Source of the DNA: Bacteroidota bacterium
GTDB taxonomy: Bacteria; Bacteroidota; Ignavibacteria; UBA10030
Direction: 5' to 3'
NCBI GenBank assembly: GCA_041695045.1
Contig: JBGFRR010000128.1
Location: forward strand, 16,004-80,003
Length of the DNA stretch: 64,000 nt
The translations under genes and the position numbers were made by a program. The notes below the pieces were generated by a model. That model was not told the origin of the DNA and did no database searches. It was given only the letters and a program-made list of their open reading frames with translations. Positions 3,618 through 37,158 of the stretch are shown here, one piece after another (the first letter of the stretch is position 1; the number at the start of each line of letters is the position of its first letter).

Positions 3618-4301
3618 ATGACAGAAGAATTGAGCTTCTTACGCAACGTTCCGATCTTCGCCGACCTGGAAGATGCGGATCTCAAAAAGATCGCCAAGCT
3701 CGGTGTCCGCAAGAAGTATAAGAAAGGGAGCATCGTTGTGTTGGAGGAAGAGCTTGGGGCAGCGCTCTTTGTGATCGTGTCGGGTAAAGTGAAGGTTGTG
3801 CGGATGGATGAAGACGGACGCGAAGTCATTCTCTCGATATTCGGCCCCGGCGAATTCTTTGGGGAGATGTCATTGCTCGACGGCATGGCGCGCTCGGCCA
3901 GCGTCGTTGCCACGGCGAAGTCGGAGCTGTTCATGATCCACCGGCGAGACTTCCTCGACCTGCTGCACGACTATCCCAAAGTTGCCATCGCTCTTTTGGG
4001 TGAGTTAGCCATGCGGTTGCGGAAAGCGGACGGGCAGATCAAAAGTCTCTCGCTCAAAGACGCAGCCGGCCGTGTGGCGAATGTGCTCCTGATGCTAGCG
4101 GACGATATCGGGATGTTTCGCAAAGGGAAAGTGGAGATCGACGATCTCCCGCTGCAGCAGGATATGGCCAGCATGGCCGGGACTTCGCGCGAAACGGTGT
4201 CGCGTGTGATCCACCAGTTTATCCGCAAAGGCCATGTGCGCATGGAAGGAAACAAGCTGACCATCAACGACTACGAAGCCTTCCGTAAGCGGTATGTGTA
4301 G
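3618..4301 (+). CDS. Crp/Fnr-family transcriptional regulator (cNMP-binding domain plus C-terminal HTH)
   Basis: GPGEFFGEMSLLDG..RSASVVA cNMP-binding beta-roll motif. C-terminal SRETVSRVIHQF recognition-helix-like segment. 227 aa. Confidence 0.8.
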   Translation: MTEELSFLRNVPIFADLEDADLKKIAKLGVRKKYKKGSIVVLEEELGAALFVIVSGKVKVVRMDEDGREVILSIFGPGEFFGEMSLLDGMARSASVVATAKSELFMIHRRDFLDLLHDYPKVAIALLGELAMRLRKADGQIKSLSLKDAAGRVANVLLMLADDIGMFRKGKVEIDDLPLQQDMASMAGTSRETVSRVIHQFIRKGHVRMEGNKLTINDYEAFRKRYV

Positions 4302-4315
4302 CGCGGCCGCGGCCC

Positions 4316-5230
4316 GTGAAGGGGAAGACGAATGACGACGAGTTTATGGACGTGACGGAGGCATTGCTGCACAATCTGGACTCATCAGGAGCGGAGAGTA
4401 CGGCGGAAGGTGGCATCGCCGACCTGCATCTTCATACTACTCACTCGGACGGAGCGCTTTCTCCTCACGACCTCGTGCAGAAAGCCCGTGACGCCGGCCT
4501 GAACACTATTGCCATTACCGACCACGACAACGTTGCCGCGCTTGACGAAGCGATTGAGTGGGGCAGGAGCATGGGCGTCGAGGTCATCACCGGCCTCGAA
4601 CTCAGTGTAACGCTCAGTGAAAAGGATGTCCACATTCTCGCCTACTTCTTCGACCGTAAGAATCCAAACCTTCTCGAGTATCTCGAATTCTTCCGCCGAG
4701 AGCGCCTCAAACGTGCCGAGCGCATCGTCCAGAAGCTCAACAGCATCAACATCTCCCTCGATCTTCACGATGTTCTTGAACAGGCCGGCATCGGTTCCGT
4801 CGGCAGGCCGCATATTGCCAACGCGCTGGTCGAACAGGGGATGATCGGCTCCTATCACGAAGCATTCGAGAAGTACATCGGCGTGAACGGTCCGGCGTAT
4901 GAAGAAAAGTACCACATCTCGCCAGCCGATGCGTTCAAACTCATTGCGTCATCGGGCGGGCTTTCGTTCCTCGCCCACCCCGGCAAATACATGACCGAAG
5001 TCGAAATCTCTGCGTTGATTCAATCGGGACTCGACGGGATTGAAGTCGTTCATCCGTCGCACAGCCCGACGCTACAGGAGTATTACCGCGGCGTGGTCAA
5101 CCACTACTTTTTGCTCGAAAGCGGCGGCTCGGATTTTCACGGCGGGAAGAAGAATGACGAGTACGCGTTTGGTCATTCCGTCGTCCCCATGCACGTTGTG
5201 CATGCGATGCGGAAGCGACTCTTTTCGTGA
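4316..5230 (+). CDS. PHP-domain phosphoesterase (TrpH/YciV-like)
   Basis: DLHLHTTHSDGALSPHDLVQKARDAGLNTIAITDHDNVAAL, the PHP His-rich metal site. GTG start at 4316; alternative ATG at MDVTEALL. Confidence 0.7.
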   Translation: MKGKTNDDEFMDVTEALLHNLDSSGAESTAEGGIADLHLHTTHSDGALSPHDLVQKARDAGLNTIAITDHDNVAALDEAIEWGRSMGVEVITGLELSVTLSEKDVHILAYFFDRKNPNLLEYLEFFRRERLKRAERIVQKLNSINISLDLHDVLEQAGIGSVGRPHIANALVEQGMIGSYHEAFEKYIGVNGPAYEEKYHISPADAFKLIASSGGLSFLAHPGKYMTEVEISALIQSGLDGIEVVHPSHSPTLQEYYRGVVNHYFLLESGGSDFHGGKKNDEYAFGHSVVPMHVVHAMRKRLFS

Positions 5231-24536: not shown

Positions 24537-24773
24537 GCGCCACTTCACGATTTCTTAACATTCAGTCCTTCCACCGTTAACACACGCGTCTATATTTGGT
24601 GCTGTGTACGGAGTGAGTGTATGGGCGATTCCCCTCCGCTGGGTTCCGAGCGTAGGGGCGATTCATGTCGAAGATCCCGCCGAAGGCGGGGAATCGCCCT
24701 TTCACAAAAAGGTAACGTCCGCATGAAGTTCACTTCACAGTCCGCCTGTATATTGCGGCAAGGAGAAGAAGTC

Positions 24774-27527
24774 ATGAACAGGAGAAAACAGTTCGGTGCA
24801 GCAATCGTCGCATGTGCGATTGCTTTGATGGGTGCGATGCTCGGTAGCGCGACGATGCCCGGTCTGCTGTCGGGACAGACGTTCGAACGAGGAGTGATCA
24901 CCGGGCGTGTCATAGACTCCGAGACGGGCGAGTCATTGATCGGAGTGAACGTCGTCATTGAAGGCACCACACGTGGCGCCGCAACGGATGTCGAGGGGCG
25001 TTTTACGATCCAGAACGTTGAGCCGGGGCGCTACACGCTTGTGGTGTCGATTGTGTCGTACGCGCGCAAACGCATCGAGAACCTCAGCGTGAAGTCGGGG
25101 CAAGCCGTCTCGCTTCATATCGTGATGACGCCGGAAGTGATCCAAACGCAGGAGGTGGTTGTCGAGGCGCGGGCTGTTCTTTCGTCTGAAGGCGCTCTCC
25201 TTGCGCAGCATCGAAAGGCGCCGGCAATCAGCGACGGCATCAGCGCCGAACAGATCAAGCGAACGCCGGATGCGACTTCGAGCGACGCGCTGAAACGATT
25301 GACAGGCATTTCGATTGTGGATAACAAGTTCATCTTTGTTCGCGGAGTCACCGATCGCTATAACCAGACGATGTTAAATGGTATACCCGTCACGAGCACC
25401 GATGCGGAAAAGAGAAGTTTTTCTTTCGATATGGTACCTGCAAACCTCTTAGAAAACACTATCGTGGTCAAAAGTGCCACGCCGGACCTCCCTGGGGATT
25501 TCACAGGTGGCTTGGTGCAACTGAATACACTGGATTTTCCCGATCAGACTGTGCTGCGTGCGAGTATTGGTTCAGCTTACAACTCCATGACAACGTGGAA
25601 GCCAATCTTTGGATCTGCATCGGGAAGAACAGATTGGCTTGGGTTTGATGACGGCTCCAGAGCATTTCCAGGGAATGGCACGAGCAGTGGAGAGCTTGCC
25701 CGCTCTTTGCCGAACAACTGGGCGCCCCGATCGTTTCGCGCACCGACAAATACAGCTTTTTCGTTCGTATATGGGAGCGTGTTTGAAGAATTAGGCGGAG
25801 AAAGCAATCAACTTGGCGTCATCACGGCGGTCACGTACCGGGGTTCTTTCCAGAGGAATGAGAAGATTATCGACGATGACGTTCATCTGAGGTATAACGT
25901 GGGAACAAAGGATGAATATTCAGTTTTGCTCAGTGCCCTGGCGAATCTAAGTTACAAGTTTGCCGAAACCCACAAGGTGAGCTTGAAGAACAACTCTATT
26001 CAGACTGGAGAGGACGAGGTAAGCAAGATTCGCTCTGAAGATAACGGGACCATGCTGGAAAACGTGTACACCATTGTCAACTGGAACCAGCGGTCGATGT
26101 ATTCGGGTCAACTGACGGGCGAACACGTGCTTTCGCAGTTGGGTGGAATTTCGGTGGATTGGCGGGCATCGCTCTCAACTTCCAAGAGCGAAGTTCCTGA
26201 TAGAAAAGAAGTGACATATTATCGGTGGCTAGGAAATACTTCGGATCCGTTTGAGGCTGCCACCAACCAGAGGTCATGGAGTAAGTTGAATGACAAGGTC
26301 GGTGCACTTGGGCTGGATATGACAGTACCACTGAATATTCTGAAGATCAAAGCCGGGTTCCAGTCAGAGTCGAAGAAAACGGACTACAGAATACGGTATT
26401 TCAATGTATCGGCGGATTATCCCGGAGGAGCCTCAAGCGATTTAACGACGCTGCCTCTGGAGAAGATTTATGACCCGGCCAATTATGGTCGAGGAAAATT
26501 CCTCTTCAACGAATCTTCGAAGGCAACCGACACCTACGATGCCGCGCAATCGCTGGCTGCCGCGTATATTATGGCCGATGTTCCGTTTGAGCTCATGAAT
26601 GAGAAATTCCGTTTTGTAGGTGGTGCCAGGCTCGAAGAATCCTCCCAGCGTGTGAATGTTCCGAGAACGCTTCTGCCGGGCGGGCCTGTGGAAACGACCG
26701 AATTGAGGAATTCCGATCTGCTTCCTTCCTTTAATTTGACCTATACCATCAATACTATCATGAACCTGCGGTTTGCCTATTCGCACTCAGTGAACAGGCC
26801 GGAGTTCCGGGAGCTCGCGCCAACGGGGTTCTACGATTTCGTCAAATACGAATCGGTGGGAGGAAATCCGAACCTCAAAAGGTCGCTTGCAAAGAATTAT
26901 GACATACGCTTTGAAATGTTTCCAGGGATTGGTGAGCTCATTGCCGTCAGCTATTTTCGAAAACAGATCGTCAATGCGATCGAAGAACAACTTGTACACA
27001 CATCGACGAGAGCGAGGTCATGGTTCAATTCTGATATCGCCGTGAATTCCGGGTGGGAATTTGAGGTGAGAAAATCACTGGGCTTCCTGGGTGGATTGTT
27101 CCAGCATTTCTCGCTCTCGTGCAACTACACTCGTGTGTATTCTGCGGTGGATTTTCTCCTGACGTCGGGCAACTCGCTTGAAACGGTCACAACGGTGAAC
27201 CAACGACCGATGCAGGGCCAATCCCCCTATATGGTGAATGCTTCACTGTTTTTCTCAGAACCATCACTCGGGACTTCAATCAATATTCTCTACAACAAAT
27301 TCGGACGAAGGTTGGACGCTGTTGGATTCCTGACTTCTGATATTTACGAAGAACCGCGAGACCTCGTGGATCTCTCGATTTCACAGCGTGTCTGGACGGG
27401 ATTCGAGGCAAAATTCACAGTCAGAAACTTGACAAACCAGAAAAGAGTTTTCACGCGTGATGGAAAGATGTACGAGCAGACGGCAAGCGGGTCGACATAC
27501 TCACTCCAATTCTCGCAATCGTTCTAA
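24774..27527 (+). CDS. TonB-dependent outer-membrane receptor with N-terminal carboxypeptidase-regulatory-like domain
   Basis: ATG at 24774 preceded by AGGAGAAG. Signal peptide. GVITGRVIDSETGESLIGVNVVIEGTTRGAATDVEGRFTI CarbopepD_reg-like fold. TonB-box/plug-like region (ISDGISAEQIKRTPDATSSDALKRLTGI). C-terminal beta-barrel ending in aromatic residues. The listed ORF from 24396 is over-extended. Confidence 0.75.
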   Translation: MNRRKQFGAAIVACAIALMGAMLGSATMPGLLSGQTFERGVITGRVIDSETGESLIGVNVVIEGTTRGAATDVEGRFTIQNVEPGRYTLVVSIVSYARKRIENLSVKSGQAVSLHIVMTPEVIQTQEVVVEARAVLSSEGALLAQHRKAPAISDGISAEQIKRTPDATSSDALKRLTGISIVDNKFIFVRGVTDRYNQTMLNGIPVTSTDAEKRSFSFDMVPANLLENTIVVKSATPDLPGDFTGGLVQLNTLDFPDQTVLRASIGSAYNSMTTWKPIFGSASGRTDWLGFDDGSRAFPGNGTSSGELARSLPNNWAPRSFRAPTNTAFSFVYGSVFEELGGESNQLGVITAVTYRGSFQRNEKIIDDDVHLRYNVGTKDEYSVLLSALANLSYKFAETHKVSLKNNSIQTGEDEVSKIRSEDNGTMLENVYTIVNWNQRSMYSGQLTGEHVLSQLGGISVDWRASLSTSKSEVPDRKEVTYYRWLGNTSDPFEAATNQRSWSKLNDKVGALGLDMTVPLNILKIKAGFQSESKKTDYRIRYFNVSADYPGGASSDLTTLPLEKIYDPANYGRGKFLFNESSKATDTYDAAQSLAAAYIMADVPFELMNEKFRFVGGARLEESSQRVNVPRTLLPGGPVETTELRNSDLLPSFNLTYTINTIMNLRFAYSHSVNRPEFRELAPTGFYDFVKYESVGGNPNLKRSLAKNYDIRFEMFPGIGELIAVSYFRKQIVNAIEEQLVHTSTRARSWFNSDIAVNSGWEFEVRKSLGFLGGLFQHFSLSCNYTRVYSAVDFLLTSGNSLETVTTVNQRPMQGQSPYMVNASLFFSEPSLGTSINILYNKFGRRLDAVGFLTSDIYEEPRDLVDLSISQRVWTGFEAKFTVRNLTNQKRVFTRDGKMYEQTASGSTYSLQFSQSF

Positions 27528-27570: not shown

Positions 27571-29289
27571 ATGCGAAAGTTACCTTTACTGCTTCTGATT
27601 CTCGTCGGCGTCAGCTCGTTGTTTGCGCAGCGACCGACCGTTGTTCTGGGTCCGGGCCAAGGGACAGCAAACTTCAGAGTTCCCTTTCATCAAACCGGCC
27701 ATCGAACGTTATCCAGAGATACAACATACCTCCTCACAGGTTGGTATTTCGTTGATTCATTGGCCACCTTGACGATTCAACCGGGCACGCTGATACTCGG
27801 CGACACCGCATCGGCTGCGACGCTCATTATCAAGCGAGGTGCGAAGATTCATGCCAACGGCACACAGACTCAGCCGATCGTGTTCACGAGTTCAAGGCCG
27901 CGGGGTCAGCGGAAAGTGGGAGATTGGGGGGGCATTCTTATCCTTGGCAGCGCGCCAACCAACAAACCGACCTCTCAGCAAATCGAAGGAGGTTTTGGAA
28001 GAGCACATCCCAATACTGATGCACAGTACGGCGGCGCGAATCCTGATGACTCATCCGGCGTGTTTCGTTATGTCCGCATTGAGTTTCCAGGAATTGCGTT
28101 TGAGCAGGACAATGAAATCAACGGCCTGACGTTCGGAGGCGTCGGCAGAAAAACTCTGGTTGAATACATTCAGGTGAGCTATTGTGGAGACGACGATTAC
28201 GAATTCTTTGGCGGCAACGTTGATGCAAAATACCTCGTCAGTTGGAAAACTCTTGATGATAATTTTGACACGGATCATGGATGGTCGGGAAGGATCCAAT
28301 TCGCCTATGCAAAGAGAGACTCGACACTGTTTGACGCATCTGCCCCTGGGACCACCAACGGATTTGAATCCGACAATGAAGGATCGGCCCCGTTCACTTC
28401 AATTCCTCGCACAAGCGGGCGAGTGTCGAACGTCACCATCATTGGGCCTCAATCTGATACCTCTGGCACAGTGAACCCCAAATGGCATCACCTGGCCTTG
28501 ATTCGAAGAGGAAGCGAGTTCAGCATCTACAATTCTATCCTGGTCGGTTATCCTTGGGGCATACAGATCAGAGACACATTGACTCAACGTGCCGCGCTTG
28601 AAGGCCGACTGGAGATTCGAAATACAAGCATTCAGGCGAAGAGCAGGGTCGTCACACACGCAGGAGGGCCCATCGCCGGGTTTGATGCGGCAACATGGTT
28701 CAATACCCCTGCCTTCGGTAACAATGGTGGCACCAGTCCCCGCCAGGCAAGCGATGTCGGTTTTACTTCTGCTGCGTTTAGGTTCGATGCGACACACAAT
28801 CCCGTGCCCAGAGCAGGCTCGGAAGGAGCGACAGCGCCGGCAGCGTTCAGTGTCGGACGGTTGAGCGGAGATACCTGGTTTACGCCTGTAACGTACCGCG
28901 GCGCTTTTAACCCGGCGCTGCCGTTTAGCGCTCAGTGGACAGCCGGTTGGACCAACTTTGACCCTGTGAACACGGATTACTCTAGGGGTGTAACGAGTGT
29001 GGAACAAGTCCACGGAGCGATACCGGTTGCATTCGCGCTGGAGCAGAATTACCCAAATCCCTTCAATCCGAGTACGGTGATCCGGTATTCACTTCCCCAA
29101 GCAACTCGTGTGACATTAAAGGTGTACGACCTCATGGGGAGAGAAGCAGCTGTGCTCGTGGACCGAAACATGACGGCCGGACAATATGAGGTTGTGTTTG
29201 ATGCGAGCGAACTGCCGAGCGGCGTGTACATGTATCAACTCCGGGCGGGGGAGTTCCGCCAGGTCAAGAGGATGGTGCTTGCAAAATAA
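27571..29289 (+). CDS. secreted right-handed beta-helix-like protein with a type-A T9SS C-terminal sorting domain
   Basis: Signal peptide MRKLPLLLLILVGVSSLFAQ. C-terminal NYPNPFNPSTVIRYSLPQATRVTLKVYDLMGREAAVLV...SGVYMYQLRAGEF is a canonical T9SS C-terminal domain. Confidence 0.6.
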   Translation: MRKLPLLLLILVGVSSLFAQRPTVVLGPGQGTANFRVPFHQTGHRTLSRDTTYLLTGWYFVDSLATLTIQPGTLILGDTASAATLIIKRGAKIHANGTQTQPIVFTSSRPRGQRKVGDWGGILILGSAPTNKPTSQQIEGGFGRAHPNTDAQYGGANPDDSSGVFRYVRIEFPGIAFEQDNEINGLTFGGVGRKTLVEYIQVSYCGDDDYEFFGGNVDAKYLVSWKTLDDNFDTDHGWSGRIQFAYAKRDSTLFDASAPGTTNGFESDNEGSAPFTSIPRTSGRVSNVTIIGPQSDTSGTVNPKWHHLALIRRGSEFSIYNSILVGYPWGIQIRDTLTQRAALEGRLEIRNTSIQAKSRVVTHAGGPIAGFDAATWFNTPAFGNNGGTSPRQASDVGFTSAAFRFDATHNPVPRAGSEGATAPAAFSVGRLSGDTWFTPVTYRGAFNPALPFSAQWTAGWTNFDPVNTDYSRGVTSVEQVHGAIPVAFALEQNYPNPFNPSTVIRYSLPQATRVTLKVYDLMGREAAVLVDRNMTAGQYEVVFDASELPSGVYMYQLRAGEFRQVKRMVLAK

Positions 29290-29518: not shown

Positions 29519-31768
29519 ATGCACCTTCGTTATTTGCACCTCGCCCGAATCCTTCCTTTTTTCTTCTTTGTCCTTCCACTTTTCTCGCAAGTTATTATCA
29601 AAGAGAAGATTGAAATCAAGCCTCAACTTCCCAACGCGTTCTCTAAACGTGGTGGAGTTACTTCGACGTCGGCAACCTCGTATTATGATCCACCTCCCCT
29701 CATTGTGCGGGATGGGTTACCTACATTAACTCTTCACAGTACAATTACTGTCACAGGGGAAATTGATCAAGACCCGAACAATTTTGCCGCAGGGTGGAAT
29801 GTCATGATCGTTCTCATGAAGGGCTACCAAGAACATATATTACGATGGGTAGGACGATTGCCGGCCGGGCATGGAGGTACTGTTTTTTCACATTCAGCGC
29901 CATTTTCGGGAACGTGGAGCCAAGGTGGAATTGACTTGCGGATGTATCTGTTCGATTATGCGTGGGGAAACGGCACACGTCAAGTAGCTTCCGGAGGAGA
30001 AAGTGTGGTGTTCACGGGAACGCTTCACAGTGTGCAAACATCGCTTCCCATCGCCGGACGCGCGCTGATCTCCGCAACACCGTTAGCAGATGCGCGATTT
30101 GCAGGGTGGCGACTCCATCCAGTAGACACTGTGCTTGAGTCCGGCAAGTCAAGCCGAATTGATGTGGGAACAATGAACGCCAGTGGTTGGCACTATGATC
30201 CGTTGCCGATTCCCGGCGCCGAAGCATTTGCCACAGTACAAGTAACGGGAGGAGATTACGTTTATCTTCAGTGGCTGGAGTGGAGCGGGCAAAGTACCGT
30301 TGAGGGGAAGGAAATCACGATTTCATTGGTAGATCAAGGGACGTTCCGTGGAGGAACATCGTGTTGGTTAGTCTTTGACCCATCCCGCGGCAATTTCAAC
30401 GGATTAGAAGAAGAAGTTGTAGTAACAATAGTAGGAGGAGGAAAATCCGACACTACAAAAATAAAGCTGGTGCGGGTATTGGATCATTTTGAGGTTTTGT
30501 CAGCAAAGGATACAGTTGTGAAGGGGACAACGACTCAGCTGACGGTGATCGCCAAAGATGGGGGTGGTCAGGAGATCGAGATTGATCCGGCACGAGAGGT
30601 GGTGCTGTCACTTTCGGGAGGGATGATCATCGCCGCTGCAAGCAGGCAGCAAACGAAACAAGAGAACCTCGCTTCTCCCCAAGTGCGTGCGAACATCCAT
30701 GCGGCAGATGTCTCTGCAATCTTTGGAAGCTTTGTTGTGAGCGGGACGGACACCATTCCGGATCAGGCGACGGTGCCGTATGGTATAGCACGGGCTGGGG
30801 CGGTACAGTATCTTGCTAATGGTGATATCCCAACGGGTTCGGAGCCTGAGACAATCACCATCCGGGCCGAGGCGGCTGATGATTGGACCAAGTTTGGCGA
30901 GATACAAGTGGTGGTGAAGAAGAGCGCTGCAACGATAGCACTTGATATTCCGACACCCAAAGAGATTTGGCCGACATTGCCGCAGGGGTCTGGAGGAAAT
31001 CCCGGGAAGAGGAACATCAAGGAGCACATCACCCTTACAGCTACACGAGGTGGAGTGCCTGCTGCCAATTATGAGGTCGAAATCTCAGCGACGATGGTTC
31101 TACCTTCAGGTGGGCACGAGCATACGCCGCCGCCGCCCCAAGCTTTGTTAGGGGAGTTAAAGGATATACGAACAGGCAGGAAGGGAAAAGGGACATTGAA
31201 AACAGAGACAGACACTGAAGGAAAGATTGTGCTTGAATACACAGCGCCGGAATTCAGTGGCAAGTTTGAGGTAACAGCGAAATCGACAACGGAACAAGGA
31301 GAAGATAAGGATGAGTTGACCGTGAAGGTACCTGAGTTAACGGAACTGGGGGCAAGTTCGTACTATGAATTAGTTGGCACTCCAGATAATCACAAGGGAA
31401 CCAACGATCCCTGTCGAGATGCGTCATCCTTACGGTCGTTGCATTTTCAGAATCATTATGGAACGGTGAAACTCCTTCAGGCAATTCAGAATATTGCTGC
31501 AGCGTACGCTCAGTTCCATCCCGGAATACGATTGCGAATTAATGATATGAGTCTGGAATACGGCGGATTGTTTGATATCAACAATAACTGGCAAACACCT
31601 CATCGCGGCCATCGGATTGGAGAGAATGCGGACATAGCCTTTATAGGAATCAACCGAGATAATGAGTGTGAAAATCTGAACATAAGACGTTTAGAGAGGC
31701 TGGTTCGAATACACACTCAGAATGAGCCGGTAATGGAAGGAAATCATTATCACATTAAGATGAACTGA
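29519..31768 (+). CDS. large secreted protein with Ig-like repeats and a C-terminal LAS-family (Hedgehog/DD-peptidase fold) zinc-peptidase-like domain
   Basis: Signal peptide MHLRYLHLARILPFFFFVLPLFSQ. C-terminal PHRGHRIGENADIAF (H-x6-D) and NHYH (H-x-H) about 45 aa apart match the LAS metal-ligand spacing. No T9SS C-terminal domain. Lower G+C than the flanks. Confidence 0.4.
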   Translation: MHLRYLHLARILPFFFFVLPLFSQVIIKEKIEIKPQLPNAFSKRGGVTSTSATSYYDPPPLIVRDGLPTLTLHSTITVTGEIDQDPNNFAAGWNVMIVLMKGYQEHILRWVGRLPAGHGGTVFSHSAPFSGTWSQGGIDLRMYLFDYAWGNGTRQVASGGESVVFTGTLHSVQTSLPIAGRALISATPLADARFAGWRLHPVDTVLESGKSSRIDVGTMNASGWHYDPLPIPGAEAFATVQVTGGDYVYLQWLEWSGQSTVEGKEITISLVDQGTFRGGTSCWLVFDPSRGNFNGLEEEVVVTIVGGGKSDTTKIKLVRVLDHFEVLSAKDTVVKGTTTQLTVIAKDGGGQEIEIDPAREVVLSLSGGMIIAAASRQQTKQENLASPQVRANIHAADVSAIFGSFVVSGTDTIPDQATVPYGIARAGAVQYLANGDIPTGSEPETITIRAEAADDWTKFGEIQVVVKKSAATIALDIPTPKEIWPTLPQGSGGNPGKRNIKEHITLTATRGGVPAANYEVEISATMVLPSGGHEHTPPPPQALLGELKDIRTGRKGKGTLKTETDTEGKIVLEYTAPEFSGKFEVTAKSTTEQGEDKDELTVKVPELTELGASSYYELVGTPDNHKGTNDPCRDASSLRSLHFQNHYGTVKLLQAIQNIAAAYAQFHPGIRLRINDMSLEYGGLFDINNNWQTPHRGHRIGENADIAFIGINRDNECENLNIRRLERLVRIHTQNEPVMEGNHYHIKMN

Positions 31769-31785
31769 ATGAAAGAGTATGCAAA

Positions 31786-32607
31786 ATGAGCTACATTCAG
31801 AAAGCTTTGTACCGTTTGATGCTCACCTTGACACTATCGCCCTCTAATCAGTTGTGGGCACAGGATACATTGTCTATATTCCCCTCTGCAAGGGAGATAA
31901 CTGTTTCGGTTACCGGAGTTGTGGTCAAGATGGGGCAAGAATTTCAATACTCCTATCGTGTACAAAATCATGAAGAGAGTAAGCAAAACATATTTGAGTT
32001 ATACATCCAGCATGATTCGGATGTCTACGATATCTTTGCACCGGATGGTTGGGAGGGGCTTCCGTCAAATGTTGTTAGGAGGGTTGTGATGTGGGGTTCT
32101 AATGACTCAACTTATGACATTTCACCCAAGGGTCAGTTAGGGCGGTTCGCTTTCAAAAGTCTGGGCCTTCCATCGCTTGTACTGTTCTTTGCGCGTGGTG
32201 CCTTCACGATTCCTGTGTTTCCTGAAGGCGAAGCACCGGATTCAATCGCGGGCAGCGACATCTTCGAAAACAGCGCGATTGGGAAAACGATTGGTCCCGT
32301 GCCTCCCCCCTCTCCATTCATCCCCCTCGCCTTCCTCGACACCCTCATCAGCTACACACGCCAAGCTTTTGCCCTGGGCTGGATCAAAAACCGGGACATC
32401 GTGCAAGACTTGAATGCCGAGTTAAACGACGCAAAGCGACAGCTCCGACGCAACAACAAAACAGAGGCAAAGGAAATACTCCGAGACTTTATCGACGAAG
32501 TCAAAGACTTATGGGAAGAAGAAGAGGACCAACGCCGCAAACCACTCACCAGCGAGGCCTATGCGCTGCTCAAGTTTAATGCGGAGTATCTGATCTCGAA
32601 ATTATGA
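31786..32607 (+). CDS. hypothetical secreted protein; acidic coiled-coil-like C-terminus
   Basis: Signal-peptide-like N-terminus MSYIQKALYRLMLTLTLSPSNQLWAQ. No recognisable catalytic motif. Begins 15 nt after the upstream gene's stop. Confidence 0.35.
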   Translation: MSYIQKALYRLMLTLTLSPSNQLWAQDTLSIFPSAREITVSVTGVVVKMGQEFQYSYRVQNHEESKQNIFELYIQHDSDVYDIFAPDGWEGLPSNVVRRVVMWGSNDSTYDISPKGQLGRFAFKSLGLPSLVLFFARGAFTIPVFPEGEAPDSIAGSDIFENSAIGKTIGPVPPPSPFIPLAFLDTLISYTRQAFALGWIKNRDIVQDLNAELNDAKRQLRRNNKTEAKEILRDFIDEVKDLWEEEEDQRRKPLTSEAYALLKFNAEYLISKL

Positions 32608-32675: not shown

Positions 32676-33314
32676 ATGAAAACAATCTGCGTTCAATCGA
32701 TTCTTTCATTACTCATTGTTCATTGTGCCTTGTCTCAGCACATCATTCCCTTTGCCTCAGCAGGCAACAGCATCGAGCTTACCATAGCCAACAGTTCAGG
32801 CGCCAATGCCGTGGAGATAGCAGTGAGCGTGCAGAACATTCCCTCATGGCTGGACTTTGCAAGCAAGGAACAAACGATTCGCTCTCTTGTTGCGGGAGAG
32901 GAACAGCTTGCGATGTTCGTGTTTGCGGTCGATAAGTCCGCGCCCATCGGCGAGGAACATCGCCTGCAATTCCGGATCAATACACAAGATGGCCAAACCT
33001 GGTCAAAAGAGATTTCCATCGTTGTCGCAGCACCGGAGACGTTTGAGCTGTTCCAGAACTATCCTAATCCCTTTAATCCTACCACAATGCTCTCCTATCA
33101 ATTGCCTGTGCCTGGAAAAGTGACGTTGAAGGTATTCAACCTGCTGGGACAAGAGGTTGCCACGCTGGTCGATGAGGAGGAACAAAGAGCGGGCTCTCAT
33201 CAGAGCGCATGGTATGCGGCGTATGCTGCAAGTGGTGTGTATGTGGCTCAGCTTGTTGTGGCAACGGTGGATGGCAATCATTCGATGCGACGGGCAATGG
33301 TTCTGGTAAAATAG
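32676..33314 (+). CDS. small secreted protein with a T9SS C-terminal sorting domain
   Basis: Signal peptide. C-terminal FELFQNYPNPFNPTTMLSYQLPVPGKVTLKVFNLLGQEVATLVDEE...SGVYVAQL is a canonical T9SS C-terminal domain. Confidence 0.55.
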   Translation: MKTICVQSILSLLIVHCALSQHIIPFASAGNSIELTIANSSGANAVEIAVSVQNIPSWLDFASKEQTIRSLVAGEEQLAMFVFAVDKSAPIGEEHRLQFRINTQDGQTWSKEISIVVAAPETFELFQNYPNPFNPTTMLSYQLPVPGKVTLKVFNLLGQEVATLVDEEEQRAGSHQSAWYAAYAASGVYVAQLVVATVDGNHSMRRAMVLVK

Positions 33315-33409
33315 CGGAGGAATGTTTATATTACAGTGTCCGCTGCATTCTTATTTGAGCGGCGCTTCGTCCTATAGGGATGGTAGAACAAGTGCAAGGA
33401 AGCCCAATC

Positions 33410-34552
33410 ATGAGAGTCGCCTATTTCAATGCAAACCTTCGTGTCGGACAGGATGGTGTGACACGGGTGATGTACAAGATGTTTGAAGGAGCAAAAGCTC
33501 GCGGCGTCGACGCCATGGCGTTTACCTCAACTCTTCCTGAACACCATCACGAAATCATCCCGATGGTCGGCGTGCCGTCGATCGCCTTACCGCTCCAGAA
33601 GGCCTATCGTCTTGCGTTGCCAGGCTCTCAGGCGTTTGTTAAGCGACTTGCGGAGTTTCGGCCTGACATTATTCACCTGAACAGCCCGTGCACGCTTGGC
33701 TTTGCAGCTATGAAGTACGCCCGTGAGTTCGGTGTGCCTGCTGTCGCCACGTACCACACGCATTTCCCATCGTATCCACGCTACTACAAGCTGAAAGGGT
33801 TTGAAAATCTTGTGTGGAGGCTCTCGCGCCGTTTCTATAATAATCTTGACCGCACGTTCGTCCCAACGATGCCGATTCTTCGTGAGCTGGAAACACATGC
33901 AATCCGGAATCTTCAGTATCTCCCGAACGGCGTCGACCTTTCGTTGTTCCATCCACGTCGAAAGTCAGAATCGTGGAGAAAACGCTTCGGACCGCGCAAC
34001 AAGCCTGTTGTCCTCTTTGTGAGCAGGTTGGTGTGGGAGAAGGATCTGCGCGTGCTCGCCGAAGCGTACGCGATTCTCCGCTCCCGTCATCTCGATTTCG
34101 AGATGGTGGTTGTTGGCGACGGACATGCACGGGTAGAGTTCGAGAAGATGATGCCCGGCGCCCACTTTCTCGGTTATCAGAGTGGAAGCGCCCTTGCCGA
34201 ATGTTATGCCTCGTCCGATGTTTTCGTCTTTCCATCGACGACAGAGACGTTTGGTCTTGTGACTCTGGAAGCGATGGCATCAGGTACCGTTCCGGTGGCA
34301 GCGAATGTTGGGGGTGCGTCGGGAATCATCGAGGATGGTATGTCCGGGTTGCTCGCTCAACCTCACAGCGGGTCGGATCTCGCCCGCAAGGTAGAATGGT
34401 TGCTCGACAATGACATAGAGCGATGGCGCATGTCGCAGCAAGCGGTTGAACGGGCGCGGCAATTCGGTTGGGATGCTATCATGGACCGACTCTTCACCAG
34501 TTACGGAGAAGTGATTGACCAGCACGAGCGCCGTCGCCGTTCGGCAGCATAG
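33410..34552 (+). CDS. glycosyltransferase family 4 (GT-B fold)
   Basis: C-terminal ...VFVFPSTTETFGLVTLEAMASGTVPVAANVGGASGIIEDGMSGLL (EX7E-like GT4 motif). ATG at 33410 within listed ORF 33380. Confidence 0.75.
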   Translation: MRVAYFNANLRVGQDGVTRVMYKMFEGAKARGVDAMAFTSTLPEHHHEIIPMVGVPSIALPLQKAYRLALPGSQAFVKRLAEFRPDIIHLNSPCTLGFAAMKYAREFGVPAVATYHTHFPSYPRYYKLKGFENLVWRLSRRFYNNLDRTFVPTMPILRELETHAIRNLQYLPNGVDLSLFHPRRKSESWRKRFGPRNKPVVLFVSRLVWEKDLRVLAEAYAILRSRHLDFEMVVVGDGHARVEFEKMMPGAHFLGYQSGSALAECYASSDVFVFPSTTETFGLVTLEAMASGTVPVAANVGGASGIIEDGMSGLLAQPHSGSDLARKVEWLLDNDIERWRMSQQAVERARQFGWDAIMDRLFTSYGEVIDQHERRRRSAA

Positions 34553-34749: not shown

Positions 34750-37158
34750 CTAAGGATTGATTTCCAACAAGAGCATGGTAGCCTGTGGCGAAAGGCTGAG
34801 GCGAGTAGTGCTCGTGGCGTGTGTACAGCGCAGAAGATGGGTAGGGGAGGAGGGAAGAACCCGCTTCACCCCAAAGGGGAGAAAGACTTCGATGCTCGAA
34901 GGCGCACGGTTTGCTGGGAAGGTGTTGTTGAACGCTAGGATACATCGGTGGCGAGATTCGAAGGACACGTCGCAATTGACCCGTCCGAACGCCGTAGGGG
35001 CATTGTGGATGCGAAGAGGAAGCGATTGCTTGAGGAACGGACCGGCGCCGCGGAAAATTTCGAGGGAAGTCGGCGTTTCACGAAGAAGACAGTCGCGCAG
35101 AAACAGGATAACCTCCGCCGCTGCCCACCCATGATGCCCGTCTCCCATCGATCCTCCCCCTGTCCGGGGATGGATTGCCTCGGGGAAGGAGAATGTCGGC
35201 GACGCTTGGGCAAAGACGTTGCGGGCGACCTTCCACGCTTTCTCCGGTTCTCCGATCTGCAGAAAACTGTGTGCGAGCTGCAGCGTGAGGTACGGGTTGT
35301 AGCCGGAGTGAATGATGGGATGGAAGAACCCACGCTCATCGACGAATCGTTTGTACACTTCGTGAACGGTTTCAACCGCACCGGGAAGGGGAACGTCTTC
35401 GATCGCCAGCGGGTAGACCGCACACAACGAGCCGATAGCGGACTCATCGAATGCTCGGGTCGGCGAAGCTGGGATGAGACGCCTTCCGAGTCGTTGGTGG
35501 ACGACCTCGAGTGATTGTAGGATGTCATGGGAAAACAGGCGACACTCTATGATAAAGGCGTCGGCGTCCTTCTGCTGCCCCGCTTCGTGCGCGAGAGCTG
35601 CCAGCGCACGAAGGCCGGCAAGCGACCAGAACGAATCCCAGTAATAGTGGTCGACGGTGCCAAGATGCTCTGCGCTCAGGCTTTTCGGCATCAGTCCTTT
35701 CATCGTTGTTGCCGCTGTTGAAGACGAGCGGCGCATTCGTTGGATCCATGTCCCGGCGCGCTTGAGAACCGGATACAATTGCTTGAGCCAGAGCGTTGAC
35801 CTCGCGATACGGTAGTGTTGGTGGACCATCCAGAGCACGGCCCCGTTCGAATCCCATTCGCCGTTGGGTCCTCGGAAGAATCCATCCTGGGTGAGCCGCT
35901 GTGGAAAGGAATTCATTACTCCACGCACTCGGTCGTGCAATCCCAGAACATCCAGAGCACGAAGCATCGGGACGGCGTCGCGGAACCAGAAATGGTGATA
36001 CAGGAACGGGCCCGGTGTGATGGTGTCTGCATCCTGAAGCTGAAGCAGCGTGAGTGCACTCGCGTCGAAGAGATGCTGGAGTGCTTGATCGCCGAAGTGC
36101 ATGTGTGCGCGGTGTACTTGTTCCCGTCGCCACACGTCCTTGTGCTCTTTCTTTCGGTGTTCGTAGGTCACGCGCCACGATTGTTTCACCGGCACGCGTT
36201 TCAGTACCCGCTCGCTCGCGAGCGCGATGCTGCCATGGATCGTCCCTCGGCCACCGGCGGGAAGCTCGAATCGATATCCCGCGACTGCATTGGCGAAACC
36301 TGCCTCGCACTGTATTGAAGAGGAGTGAGTTCTTGGTGACTGGACTTTCCCCATGTTCCGTGCAAACGTTGCAGTGTCTCCTTCCACCCCGCTGCCGAGC
36401 CGATGCCAGTGGGGGTCTTCTGCCAACACCACGCCCACAGCTCCATCCACGGCGATGACACGGGGGGAGGGAAATTTGATCTGCTCGATCGGCGCAACTC
36501 CTTCTGGATTGAATGGTCGAACAGCGAGACAGAGGTCGGCCCGTTGCTGGAAGAGCGAGGTGTTTTCAACTGATGCTTCGAAGAATACGACATCGGTGCT
36601 GCTGCGCGAAGCAAGAACAAAAGCTTCGAGTCTCAGAACAAAGTCTCGCCACCGAAGCGAGGTGGTCAGTCGAGGTGCAACCGGGTCGAGCCGCTGGTCT
36701 GCATGGGAAGCGAGAGACGGAAACAACACATCGTCATTGGCAACAAGCCAGGTATCGATCGACCATTCACGCGGAAGGGGCGTGAGAAGTCCTCTTGGAT
36801 CAACAATAGCTTCGTGTGTCCCGTGAGGAGTTCCGAGGGCTGTCCAGTTTCGATGAGTAATGTTCATCATGAGCGGGTTCTGAGATCGCGCGACAAAGGA
36901 TGAGCTGGAAGGGTCGAGCTGGCGGTGTACCCAGAATGGGAACACCCACTCCCGTTTCATCTGAAAGATGCCGTAATTCAGAAGCCCGCGCGTAATGACC
37001 GGAGCACTCAGTTGGAATAATTCTTTTGGAAAACCACGACCGTTGACATCACAAAGGCTGCTGGCAAGCTGGAACTGTCTGCGAGCCGACGCTGGGATAT
37101 CGAGTTGTCGGAAGACCTGGTCGAGAAGGATGGAGTTGATCGTCACGCCCATAAGCAC
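34750..37158 (-). CDS. large glycoside-hydrolase-like protein, (alpha/alpha)6-barrel type (GH15/GH63/debranching-enzyme-like)
   Basis: 802 aa. LYHHFWFRDAVPMLRALDVLGL and NGEWDSNGAVLWMVHQHY resemble the WxRD / six-hairpin glycosidase catalytic region. Last gene of the minus-strand hut array, 23 nt after the cyclodeaminase. Confidence 0.45.
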   Translation of the reverse strand: MLMGVTINSILLDQVFRQLDIPASARRQFQLASSLCDVNGRGFPKELFQLSAPVITRGLLNYGIFQMKREWVFPFWVHRQLDPSSSSFVARSQNPLMMNITHRNWTALGTPHGTHEAIVDPRGLLTPLPREWSIDTWLVANDDVLFPSLASHADQRLDPVAPRLTTSLRWRDFVLRLEAFVLASRSSTDVVFFEASVENTSLFQQRADLCLAVRPFNPEGVAPIEQIKFPSPRVIAVDGAVGVVLAEDPHWHRLGSGVEGDTATFARNMGKVQSPRTHSSSIQCEAGFANAVAGYRFELPAGGRGTIHGSIALASERVLKRVPVKQSWRVTYEHRKKEHKDVWRREQVHRAHMHFGDQALQHLFDASALTLLQLQDADTITPGPFLYHHFWFRDAVPMLRALDVLGLHDRVRGVMNSFPQRLTQDGFFRGPNGEWDSNGAVLWMVHQHYRIARSTLWLKQLYPVLKRAGTWIQRMRRSSSTAATTMKGLMPKSLSAEHLGTVDHYYWDSFWSLAGLRALAALAHEAGQQKDADAFIIECRLFSHDILQSLEVVHQRLGRRLIPASPTRAFDESAIGSLCAVYPLAIEDVPLPGAVETVHEVYKRFVDERGFFHPIIHSGYNPYLTLQLAHSFLQIGEPEKAWKVARNVFAQASPTFSFPEAIHPRTGGGSMGDGHHGWAAAEVILFLRDCLLRETPTSLEIFRGAGPFLKQSLPLRIHNAPTAFGRVNCDVSFESRHRCILAFNNTFPANRAPSSIEVFLPFGVKRVLPSSPTHLLRCTHATSTTRLSLSPQATMLLLEINP

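Follow-up and report, generated by a model that had tools for sequence, protein, structure and literature searches.

The stretch of DNA considered here, referred to as the window, comprises 64,000 nucleotides from a Bacteroidota bacterium of the Ignavibacteria (assembly GCA_041695045.1, contig JBGFRR010000128.1). Near its middle, three consecutive genes form a cassette encoding a 749-residue protein that ends in a zinc-peptidase-like domain of the LAS type, a 273-residue partner protein and a small 212-residue protein bearing a C-terminal sorting domain (CTD) of the type IX secretion system (T9SS). Table 1 presents an overview of these genes, their modules and their neighbours. A first-pass annotation had read the first two genes as a possible cell-wall-targeting effector and its immunity protein. 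Open reading frame (ORF) calling reproduces both at the positions it had given, with 17 nucleotides between them (31769-31785) and not the 15 then reported. The low-GC (guanine plus cytosine) island in which it had placed the pair is likewise found: the dip extends over about 24.7-33.3 kb of the window and contains both genes. Against a window background of 0.566, GC is 0.496 for the whole 749-residue protein gene and 0.488 for the partner gene. Within the former, the DNA of the LAS domain (the last 435 nucleotides) falls to 0.437, the minimum of the region, and the rest of the gene is at 0.51.

Table 1. Genes, modules and motifs of the cassette and its surroundings, in window coordinates
Feature	Position	Strand	Basis or remark
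TonB-dependent receptor	24723-27527	same as cassette	CarboxypepD_reg, Plug and barrel domains
572-residue T9SS-CTD protein	27571-29289	same as cassette	otherwise without recognisable domain
749-residue protein, gene	29519-31768	+	ORF call
Predicted Sec signal peptide, residues ~1-23, MHLRYLHLARILPFFFFVLPLFS	29519-29587	+	read from sequence
N-terminal scaffold, residues 24-468, beta-rich	29588-30922	+	phmmer
Immunoglobulin (Ig)-like beta-sandwich module, residues 469-605	30923-31333	+	constant arm directly before enzyme domain
SGGHEH motif, residues 531-536	31109-31126	+	in Ig-like module
Minimal LAS domain (MepA-like, Hedgehog/DD-peptidase fold), residues 606-749 and stop codon	31334-31768	+	
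H-x2-H-x6-D motif (H695, H698, D705), PHRGHRIGENADIAF	31601-31633	+	
E-x2-H-x-H motif (E740, H743, H745; NHYH)	31736-31753	+	four residues before stop
273-residue partner, gene	31786-32607	+	ORF call
Partner signal peptide, residues ~1-25	within 31786-32607	+	predicted
Partner YcnI-like beta-sandwich, residues 40-172	31903-32301	+	variable, class-specific module
Partner FIMAH four-helix bundle, residues 180-272	32323-32601	+	constant module
212-residue third cassette gene	32676-33314	+	signal peptide, small beta-sandwich, T9SS type-A CTD
T9SS type-A CTD of third gene, residues 129-212	33060-33311	+	TIGR04183
Family 4 glycosyltransferase (GT4)	33380-34552		next gene downstream of cassette; PF00534, 126 bits
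802-residue ORF	34750-37158	minus	no Pfam match at E<=1e-3

No curated family in Pfam or NCBIfam matches the full-length 749-residue protein above threshold, and no Pfam M15 family matches its C-terminal domain. The last 149 residues alone match Peptidase_M74 (the MepA family, PF03411) with 20.1 bits (E 5e-4), below the gathering threshold of 25 bits; two homologues, P0003 (27.1 bits) and P0004 (25.3 bits), pass it. A profile of the C-terminal 281-residue module retrieved a single entry from the whole PDB, MepA (1tzp), at a marginal E of 0.005. This profile aligns the pattern GG.F....H695..H698R.G...D705 onto the MepA segment GGRFNGGHASHQTGLDVD; H698 and D705 fall on residues 94 and 101 of chain 1tzp_A, which with the 19-residue leader correspond to His113 and Asp120 of MepA, the published zinc ligands of that enzyme. 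In an AlphaFold2 model of residues 469-749 (predicted local distance difference test 95.5, predicted template modelling score 0.91), a beta-sandwich (469-605) is followed by an alpha/beta domain (606-749) that has the LAS or Hedgehog/DD-peptidase fold, a central beta-sheet with helices as in MepA, the Sonic hedgehog N-domain, VanX and DD-carboxypeptidase. MepA is the best match both by structure and by sequence profile.

The LAS-type metal-ligand motifs on which the first-pass annotation had built its peptidase reading are present, and in an alignment of 99 homologous sequences they are conserved far beyond chance, in agreement with the LAS signature H-x(3-6)-D ... H-x-H. The motif residues H695, H698 and D705, whose conservation bears most directly on that reading, are invariant together with D676, G682, G683, F685 and G701, while at least 90% of the sequences retain N645, H646, N675, S678, L679, D686, W691, R699 and H743. 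Towards the C-terminus, H743 is retained in 97 of 98 sequences and H745 in 84 of 98; Glu occupies position 740 in 63 sequences, His in 26. Of 102 complete proteins, 76 have the HxH motif 3-6 residues ahead of the stop codon. H698 and D705, joined by H743 or H745, would bind the metal. With a length of about 144 residues, compared with about 240 for a full M74 catalytic domain, and with the score given above, the domain is not a bona fide M74 peptidase; it is a minimal LAS core to which M74 is closest. The M74-like match, the alignment with 1tzp, the modelled fold and the conserved motifs all support its identification as peptidase-like.

Ahead of the enzyme domain, the 749-residue protein begins with a predicted signal peptide, as does the partner; a basic and then hydrophobic segment is evident in both. 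The mature protein starts with a conserved QVII(K/R)EK motif, and the hydrophobic leader followed by SQVIIREK is common to homologues P0002, P0003 and P0006. The scaffold of residues 24-468 has no Pfam match and was found by phmmer in four loci only (L003, L001, L004 and L007). In L004 it belongs to P0006, which is the window scaffold with a Peptidase_C39-like domain at the C-terminus in place of LAS and likewise has a partner with the FIMAH domain downstream. Ig-like modules of the 749-residue protein resemble those of invasins, and the one adjoining the enzyme domain contains the motif SGGH[DE]H, in which H533 is invariant and G531, G532 and H535 nearly so among the 99 homologues. This motif may bind a second metal or form a loop that extends to the catalytic cleft. 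The protein matches neither Por_Secre_tail (PF18962) in Pfam nor TIGR04183 in NCBIfam and ends in the HxH motif instead; it therefore lacks a T9SS sorting domain, as had been claimed, though both flanking genes carry one.

The partner was initially described as having no recognisable domain, a statement that does not hold. Its last 75 residues match FIMAH (PF22888) with 28.6 bits against a Pfam cutoff of 24.8, and the C-terminus has the four-helix-bundle fold of that family. A glycosidase secreted by a Firmicute also ends in FIMAH; in the published work on the NnGH92 glycosidase, the equivalent domain is a four-helix bundle (PDB 7nsn) whose function is unknown (PMC10167667). For the YcnI-like beta-sandwich that precedes FIMAH in the partner, a copper-binding role was considered and dropped because the mature N-terminus is without histidine. 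Among 153 partner homologues whose 5' end is complete, a crude hydropathy test finds a basic/hydrophobic N-terminal segment in 146. In some partners a single polypeptide holds the complete sandwich-plus-FIMAH unit twice, or two FIMAH bundles (L135:6418-8661; L104:5926-7575; L157:2231-3406 and 3903-5081; L026:7607-9460), and in two loci (L050 and L134) partner genes stand in tandem without an intervening enzyme gene.

Conservation of the pair was examined in loci retrieved with an alignment of the C-terminal module, the full-length alignment being too divergent. ORFs were called in 80 GTDB loci and searched with purpose-built hidden Markov models (HMMs); the gene calls are crude and some metagenome contigs are near-duplicates (e.g. 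L126/L128/L129 and L117/L118), so that the pairing counts are approximate. Each of the four closest metagenomic homologues is followed, after 4-20 nucleotides, by a partner gene. Across the GTDB loci, a FIMAH partner directly follows 64 of 89 LAS genes, mostly at a distance of 0-30 nucleotides. Near-minimal proteins consisting of a signal peptide and a LAS domain (150-190 residues) still have a partner, which indicates that the association is with the enzyme domain itself. A partner-centred scan of metagenome contigs (199 relatives in 80 loci) gave 80 partner genes with upstream sequence, and here too the gene upstream encodes a LAS protein in 64. The first-pass question whether relatives carry the two genes side by side as a cassette is thus answered in the affirmative in both GTDB and metagenome loci, the downstream gene being kept beside the LAS gene in most of them.

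That first layout was nevertheless incomplete, as the same partner family also goes with at least one further enzyme head and probably with two. Among the same 80 genes, eight are preceded by a third type of head, two by a C39-like papain-fold head, two by another partner gene and four by something else or by nothing. The third head is recognised by an E..E / SYGLLQ / YNPG pattern, or in full by the motifs GIPPQ.IKG..E.E, AQTR..SYGLLQ, YNPG and a C-terminal YLP (L122:3969-5255, L132:2288-5263, L133:3065-4588, L137, L146, L152, L110 and L135). Its only Pfam support is one faint SLT match (E 0.097, in one of seven sequences), and it is tentatively regarded as an SLT/GH23-like lytic transglycosylase. 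Searches of PDB sequences with the C39-like head of P0006 and with the SLT-like class gave nothing significant. Sandwich and FIMAH of the window partner both recur in partners of LAS and SLT-like heads, and those of C39-like heads have only FIMAH in common with it; partners of the third head are in addition extended by an N-terminal domain of about 220 residues. Conversely, 13 other LAS genes, mostly from Elusimicrobiota, precede a second family that is unrelated to the FIMAH partner. Its members are about 205-295 residues long, mutually homologous and without FIMAH, have hydrophobic N-termini, and may represent an alternative partner or immunity family. Loci with this family are L021, L024, L025, L034, L052, L053, L054, L057, L058, L065, L069 and L079.

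The most informative result is the mosaic pattern of the cassette, which matches that of polymorphic toxins. It is seen most clearly in a comparison with P0004, an NCBI protein encoded on a different contig, and with its neighbour and partner, P0150. The Ig module (residues 469-606) is 95% identical between the window protein and P0004, while the sequence just upstream of it is 31% identical and the LAS domain 24-48%. Between the two partners, identity is 17-34% over the signal peptide and sandwich (33% for the sandwich) and 81% over FIMAH, reaching 94% in residues 176-225 and 95% in the final 20. Tandem arrays, which hold up to three divergent pairs, tell the same story within single genomes. 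Paralogues in most of them (L010, L011, L027, L050, L109 and L157) share 30-55% identity in LAS and 22-49% in the sandwich, against 84-99% protein and 89-98% DNA identity in FIMAH; FIMAH identity is lower in L030, L099 and two comparisons within L050. Since LAS and sandwich diverge while Ig and FIMAH remain constant, the varying unit consists of the enzyme head and the partner N-domain, set between two constant arms. The GC minimum of the window coincides with this variable core. The cassette thus has alternative heads on one scaffold (P0006) and a recombination mosaic (P0004), as polymorphic toxins do, and a small downstream gene that co-varies with the head, as effector-immunity pairs do. 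No delivery module or linked secretion apparatus (type V, VI or VII secretion, Rhs, PAAR or similar) was found by Pfam and NCBIfam: the leader is of the Sec type only, and the sole link to export is the adjacent gene with a T9SS CTD.

That adjacent gene is a third member of the cassette and was missed in the first-pass annotation, whose two-gene picture is incomplete. Its 212-residue product matches TIGR04183 with 32.6 bits (cutoff 23) and Por_Secre_tail with 23.6 bits, below the Pfam cutoff of 27, and the motif NYPNPFNP is kept in 16 homologues. Of 67 partner loci for which sequence continues downstream, 26 have a homologue of its non-CTD part immediately behind the partner, and the same gene order recurs in 11 loci from Bacteroidota and Ignavibacteriota genomes; in a few loci the gene stands directly before the LAS gene instead. 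A CTD gene beside the partner is conserved only in loci of the Fibrobacterota-Chlorobiota-Bacteroidota (FCB) group, and the third gene belongs to the cassette in these bacteria. The small CTD protein shows no homology to the partner (hhalign probability 0.1%). Some partners are themselves fused to export-related sequences. In the cultured Gracilimonas sp. BCB1 (L015:10911-12422, NZ_JBEDYP020000006.1), the partner is joined to a sorting domain (FIMAH 49.3 bits; Por_Secre_tail 41.2 bits against the cutoff of 27), that of a Rhodothermales metagenome-assembled genome (MAG; L014) ends in RTX repeats, and that of an Acidobacteria MAG (L084) carries Big_1 and CARDB domains.

The family to which the enzyme belongs is large and almost entirely unannotated. 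A word-indexed search with the whole 749-residue protein found six relatives and a search with the module profile 328. When 1.84 billion representatives were searched exhaustively by HMM, 4506 clusters scored E<=1e-3 and 1351 of them E<=1e-30; the profile used in the last includes the Ig module, and its weakest matches may be to Ig alone. Names given to the relatives in their sources are nearly all "hypothetical protein" or absent, and no description of the cassette was found in the searchable literature. Scanning one genome per GTDB species gave 105 relatives with a patchy taxonomic distribution. They occur in Bacteroidota (Balneolaceae, Rhodothermales and Gracilimonas), Ignavibacteriota, Kryptoniota and Calditrichia, and also in Nitrospirota, Elusimicrobiota, Acidobacteriota, MAGs of delta- and gamma-proteobacteria, WOR-3 and others. 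LAS-module genes were further seen on contigs binned to MAGs of Candidatus Woesearchaeota (L067), Clostridium sp. (L021) and Gloeobacteraceae (L019), occurrences that could reflect mis-binning or real horizontal spread. An origin as phage endolysin or plasmid cargo was rejected, as tblastn with the LAS module and the partner gave no match in 50,697 phage records and 72,556 plasmids; pattern scans of IMG/VR likewise found no relatives of the cassette.

The surroundings of the cassette in the window are less constant than the cassette itself. Directly upstream, and within the low-GC stretch, lie the TonB-dependent receptor and the 572-residue T9SS-CTD gene; neither is kept beside the cassette elsewhere, apart from a receptor fragment in L010. 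The GT4 glycosyltransferase gene downstream is not kept in other loci either. With PF20706, "Family 4 glycosyltransferase in conflict systems", its product likewise scores above threshold (33.7 bits, cutoff 26). No tRNA gene was found in the window, and a scan for sigma-70 promoters and terminators over 24-35 kb performed no better than on shuffled sequence and is uninformative for such an organism.

How the cassette might work can be outlined from these observations. The first gene would encode a multidomain protein, exported by Sec, that ends in a minimal MepA-like LAS zinc peptidase and most likely cleaves peptide bonds of peptidoglycan. Peptidoglycan is the probable substrate because MepA is the closest relative, because bacterial LAS enzymes generally have this role and because of the alternative heads; the SLT-like heads would be muramidases. 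The sandwich of the partner, matched to a particular enzyme domain, most likely binds and neutralises the enzyme, and would so protect the wall of the producer while the enzyme is periplasmic, making the partner an immunity or inhibitor protein of which the FIMAH bundle is the constant module. Neutralisation is suggested by adjacency, co-diversification, the signal peptide and the occurrence of an unrelated secreted family at the same position in Elusimicrobiota, all of which are typical of toxin-immunity pairs. The small T9SS-sorted surface protein encoded by the third gene may connect the complex with export or with the cell surface. Exchange of the enzyme domain and partner N-domain as a unit between the Ig and FIMAH arms would then generate a polymorphic repertoire of cell-wall hydrolases.

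Parts of this outline differ in strength. The fold with its conserved putative metal site, the cognate relation between head and partner N-domain, and the polymorphic character of the cassette are well supported. Fold, residue conservation, synteny and mosaic pattern were observed, while metal binding, peptidoglycan as the substrate, physical binding of the two proteins, neutralisation, their route of export and any antagonistic use are inferred. For the model as a whole, in which the locus is an instance of a widespread cassette of three genes (two in phyla without T9SS) that encodes a hydrolase and its cognate inhibitor, confidence is evenly balanced. Several points weigh against it. The M74 score of the window domain is below threshold, and neither type VI secretion system (T6SS), Rhs and contact-dependent inhibition genes nor other delivery genes were found near the cassette by Pfam and NCBIfam, where the flanking genes are in any case not conserved. 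FIMAH is the most conserved part of the partner and is homogenised within a genome, which is unusual for an immunity protein. A T9SS cargo gene inside the cassette speaks against a simple periplasmic immunity protein, and the fusions of partners to a T9SS CTD, RTX repeats and CARDB/Ig domains suggest export beyond the periplasm. The approximate nature of the pairing counts is a further caveat, one that does not put the trend in doubt. The effector/immunity idea of the first-pass annotation therefore stands in part. Its peptidase reading is supported, its cognate pairing is strengthened by co-divergence, immunity is plausible, and the partner does have a predicted signal peptide; residence in the periplasm is disfavoured by the CTD and RTX fusions, and the picture lacks a nearby delivery apparatus.

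The constancy of FIMAH, the export fusions and the T9SS cargo gene suggest that enzyme and partner move together and that FIMAH has a shared role, perhaps docking to a CTD carrier. If this were its whole purpose, the partner would be an export adaptor: the sandwich would grip the enzyme, FIMAH would dock to the CTD protein (or to a fused CTD) and the complex would leave through the T9SS. Such a carrier would suit a hydrolase whose catalytic motif occupies the very C-terminus, as the HxH position in most complete proteins indicates, and which cannot bear a sorting domain of its own. The restriction of the conserved CTD gene to FCB-group loci, the Gracilimonas fusion, the RTX tail in Rhodothermales, the contrast between a constant FIMAH and a variable enzyme-facing domain, and the place of FIMAH at the end of a secreted glycosidase all agree with it. 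However, the pair is equally common in phyla without T9SS, such as Nitrospirota and Acidobacteriota, Elusimicrobiota use an unrelated partner without FIMAH, and a carrier would not require the enzyme-partner interface to diverge strongly between paralogues of the same genome. Adaptor function by itself is considered unlikely, though still a serious rival to inhibition, and we know of no description of piggy-back export through the T9SS. The inhibitor and adaptor ideas are compatible, as an inhibitor or chaperone acting in transit could also serve as the export adaptor. Combining them fully yields a new polymorphic wall-toxin system of T9SS-bearing and other environmental diderms, with CTD-less heads (LAS, C39-like and SLT-like) inhibited by matched partner sandwiches, FIMAH docking to a CTD carrier, hitch-hiking through the T9SS, and near-identical FIMAH and Ig repeats as recombination arms by which heads and their antidotes are shuffled among loci; this more elaborate scheme is doubtful at present.

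Two further explanations dispense with antagonism. The protein could be a MepA-like endopeptidase that remodels the wall of its own cell or digests peptidoglycan or peptides for uptake, and the partner would be its regulator or a subunit that binds substrate. The closest structural relative, MepA, is indeed a housekeeping periplasmic enzyme, and a TonB-dependent receptor and a T9SS cargo gene directly upstream in the low-GC stretch are reminiscent of nutrient-acquisition loci. Nevertheless, these neighbours are not conserved, and patchy taxonomy, arrays of up to three divergent pairs, head swaps and mosaics are not expected of housekeeping genes, which makes a non-antagonistic enzyme distinctly improbable. 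Alternatively, the zinc site may serve binding in place of catalysis, as argued for the Hedgehog N-domain, so that the protein would be an adhesin or ligand and the partner its receptor. While the Ig-like, invasin-like modules are in keeping with this idea, it is scarcely credible given that candidate ligands and nearby residues (H695, H698, D705, H743 and Glu or His at 740) are kept across about 99 homologues, that the alternative heads are C39-like and possibly SLT-like, and that MepA is the best match by both structure and profile.

If the hydrolase and cognate-inhibitor model is true, thousands of gene pairs now labelled "hypothetical" in Bacteroidota, Ignavibacteriota, Nitrospirota, Acidobacteriota, Elusimicrobiota and other phyla would constitute an unstudied cell-wall-targeting enzyme/partner system, independent of T6SS and contact-dependent inhibition. 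The enzymes would form a new minimal LAS peptidase family, with what is to our knowledge the smallest MepA-like catalytic core. The cassette would also provide a first functional context for FIMAH, a link between T9SS cargo genes and bacterial antagonism, and a clear case of exchange in which constant arms on either side flank a variable core made up of enzyme head and binder. Experiments are feasible in Gracilimonas sp. BCB1, which is cultured and carries the cassette.

Among known enzymes, the nearest point of reference is MepA, the penicillin-insensitive murein DD-endopeptidase of E. coli (M74; PDB 1tzp and 1u10). Apart from the difference in length (about 144 against about 240 residues), only positions 25-106 of the 240-position PF03411 profile align with the window domain. 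MepA is the product of a single housekeeping gene, whereas the window domain ends a 749-residue multidomain protein, has its own partner encoded downstream, and is polymorphic and frequently present in several copies. The window sequence is closer to M74 than to the Sonic hedgehog N-domain, VanX (M15D) or M15 enzymes of the phage and VanY type, and the partner gene and cassette layout are not theirs. In the case of FIMAH, the NnGH92 bundle is fused in cis to a glycosidase, while here the domain lies on a separate protein encoded after a putative peptidoglycan-hydrolase gene.

As a system, the cassette would work like the effector/immunity pairs built around peptidoglycan hydrolases and be organised like a polymorphic toxin system. 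The former include the T6SS pairs Tae-Tai and Tge-Tgi, pesticin-Pim, colicin M-Cmi and, for self-protection, Bd3459-Bd3460 of Bdellovibrio. With them the cassette shares a hydrolase gene followed by one for a small signal-peptide protein, co-variation of the two and divergent copies in arrays. Unlike them, it has no T6SS or other injector, its enzyme has a plain Sec signal, its partner is bipartite (a variable binder plus a constant FIMAH) and in some cases joined to export signals, and the cassette includes a T9SS-CTD gene. Likeness to polymorphic toxin systems lies in the constant scaffold with alternative heads (LAS and C39-like), the immunity-like downstream gene, the mosaics and the tandem cassettes. 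The survey of those systems by Zhang et al. (2012) lists a Tox-PL-C39-like peptidase among the toxin domains, and a search of its text gave no mention of LAS or MepA (PMC3482391). Two features set the cassette apart from polymorphic toxin systems: its only trafficking domain is a signal peptide, and its downstream gene also has a constant arm, FIMAH, nearly identical at the DNA level in most arrays, so that the unit exchanged is the head together with the partner N-domain.

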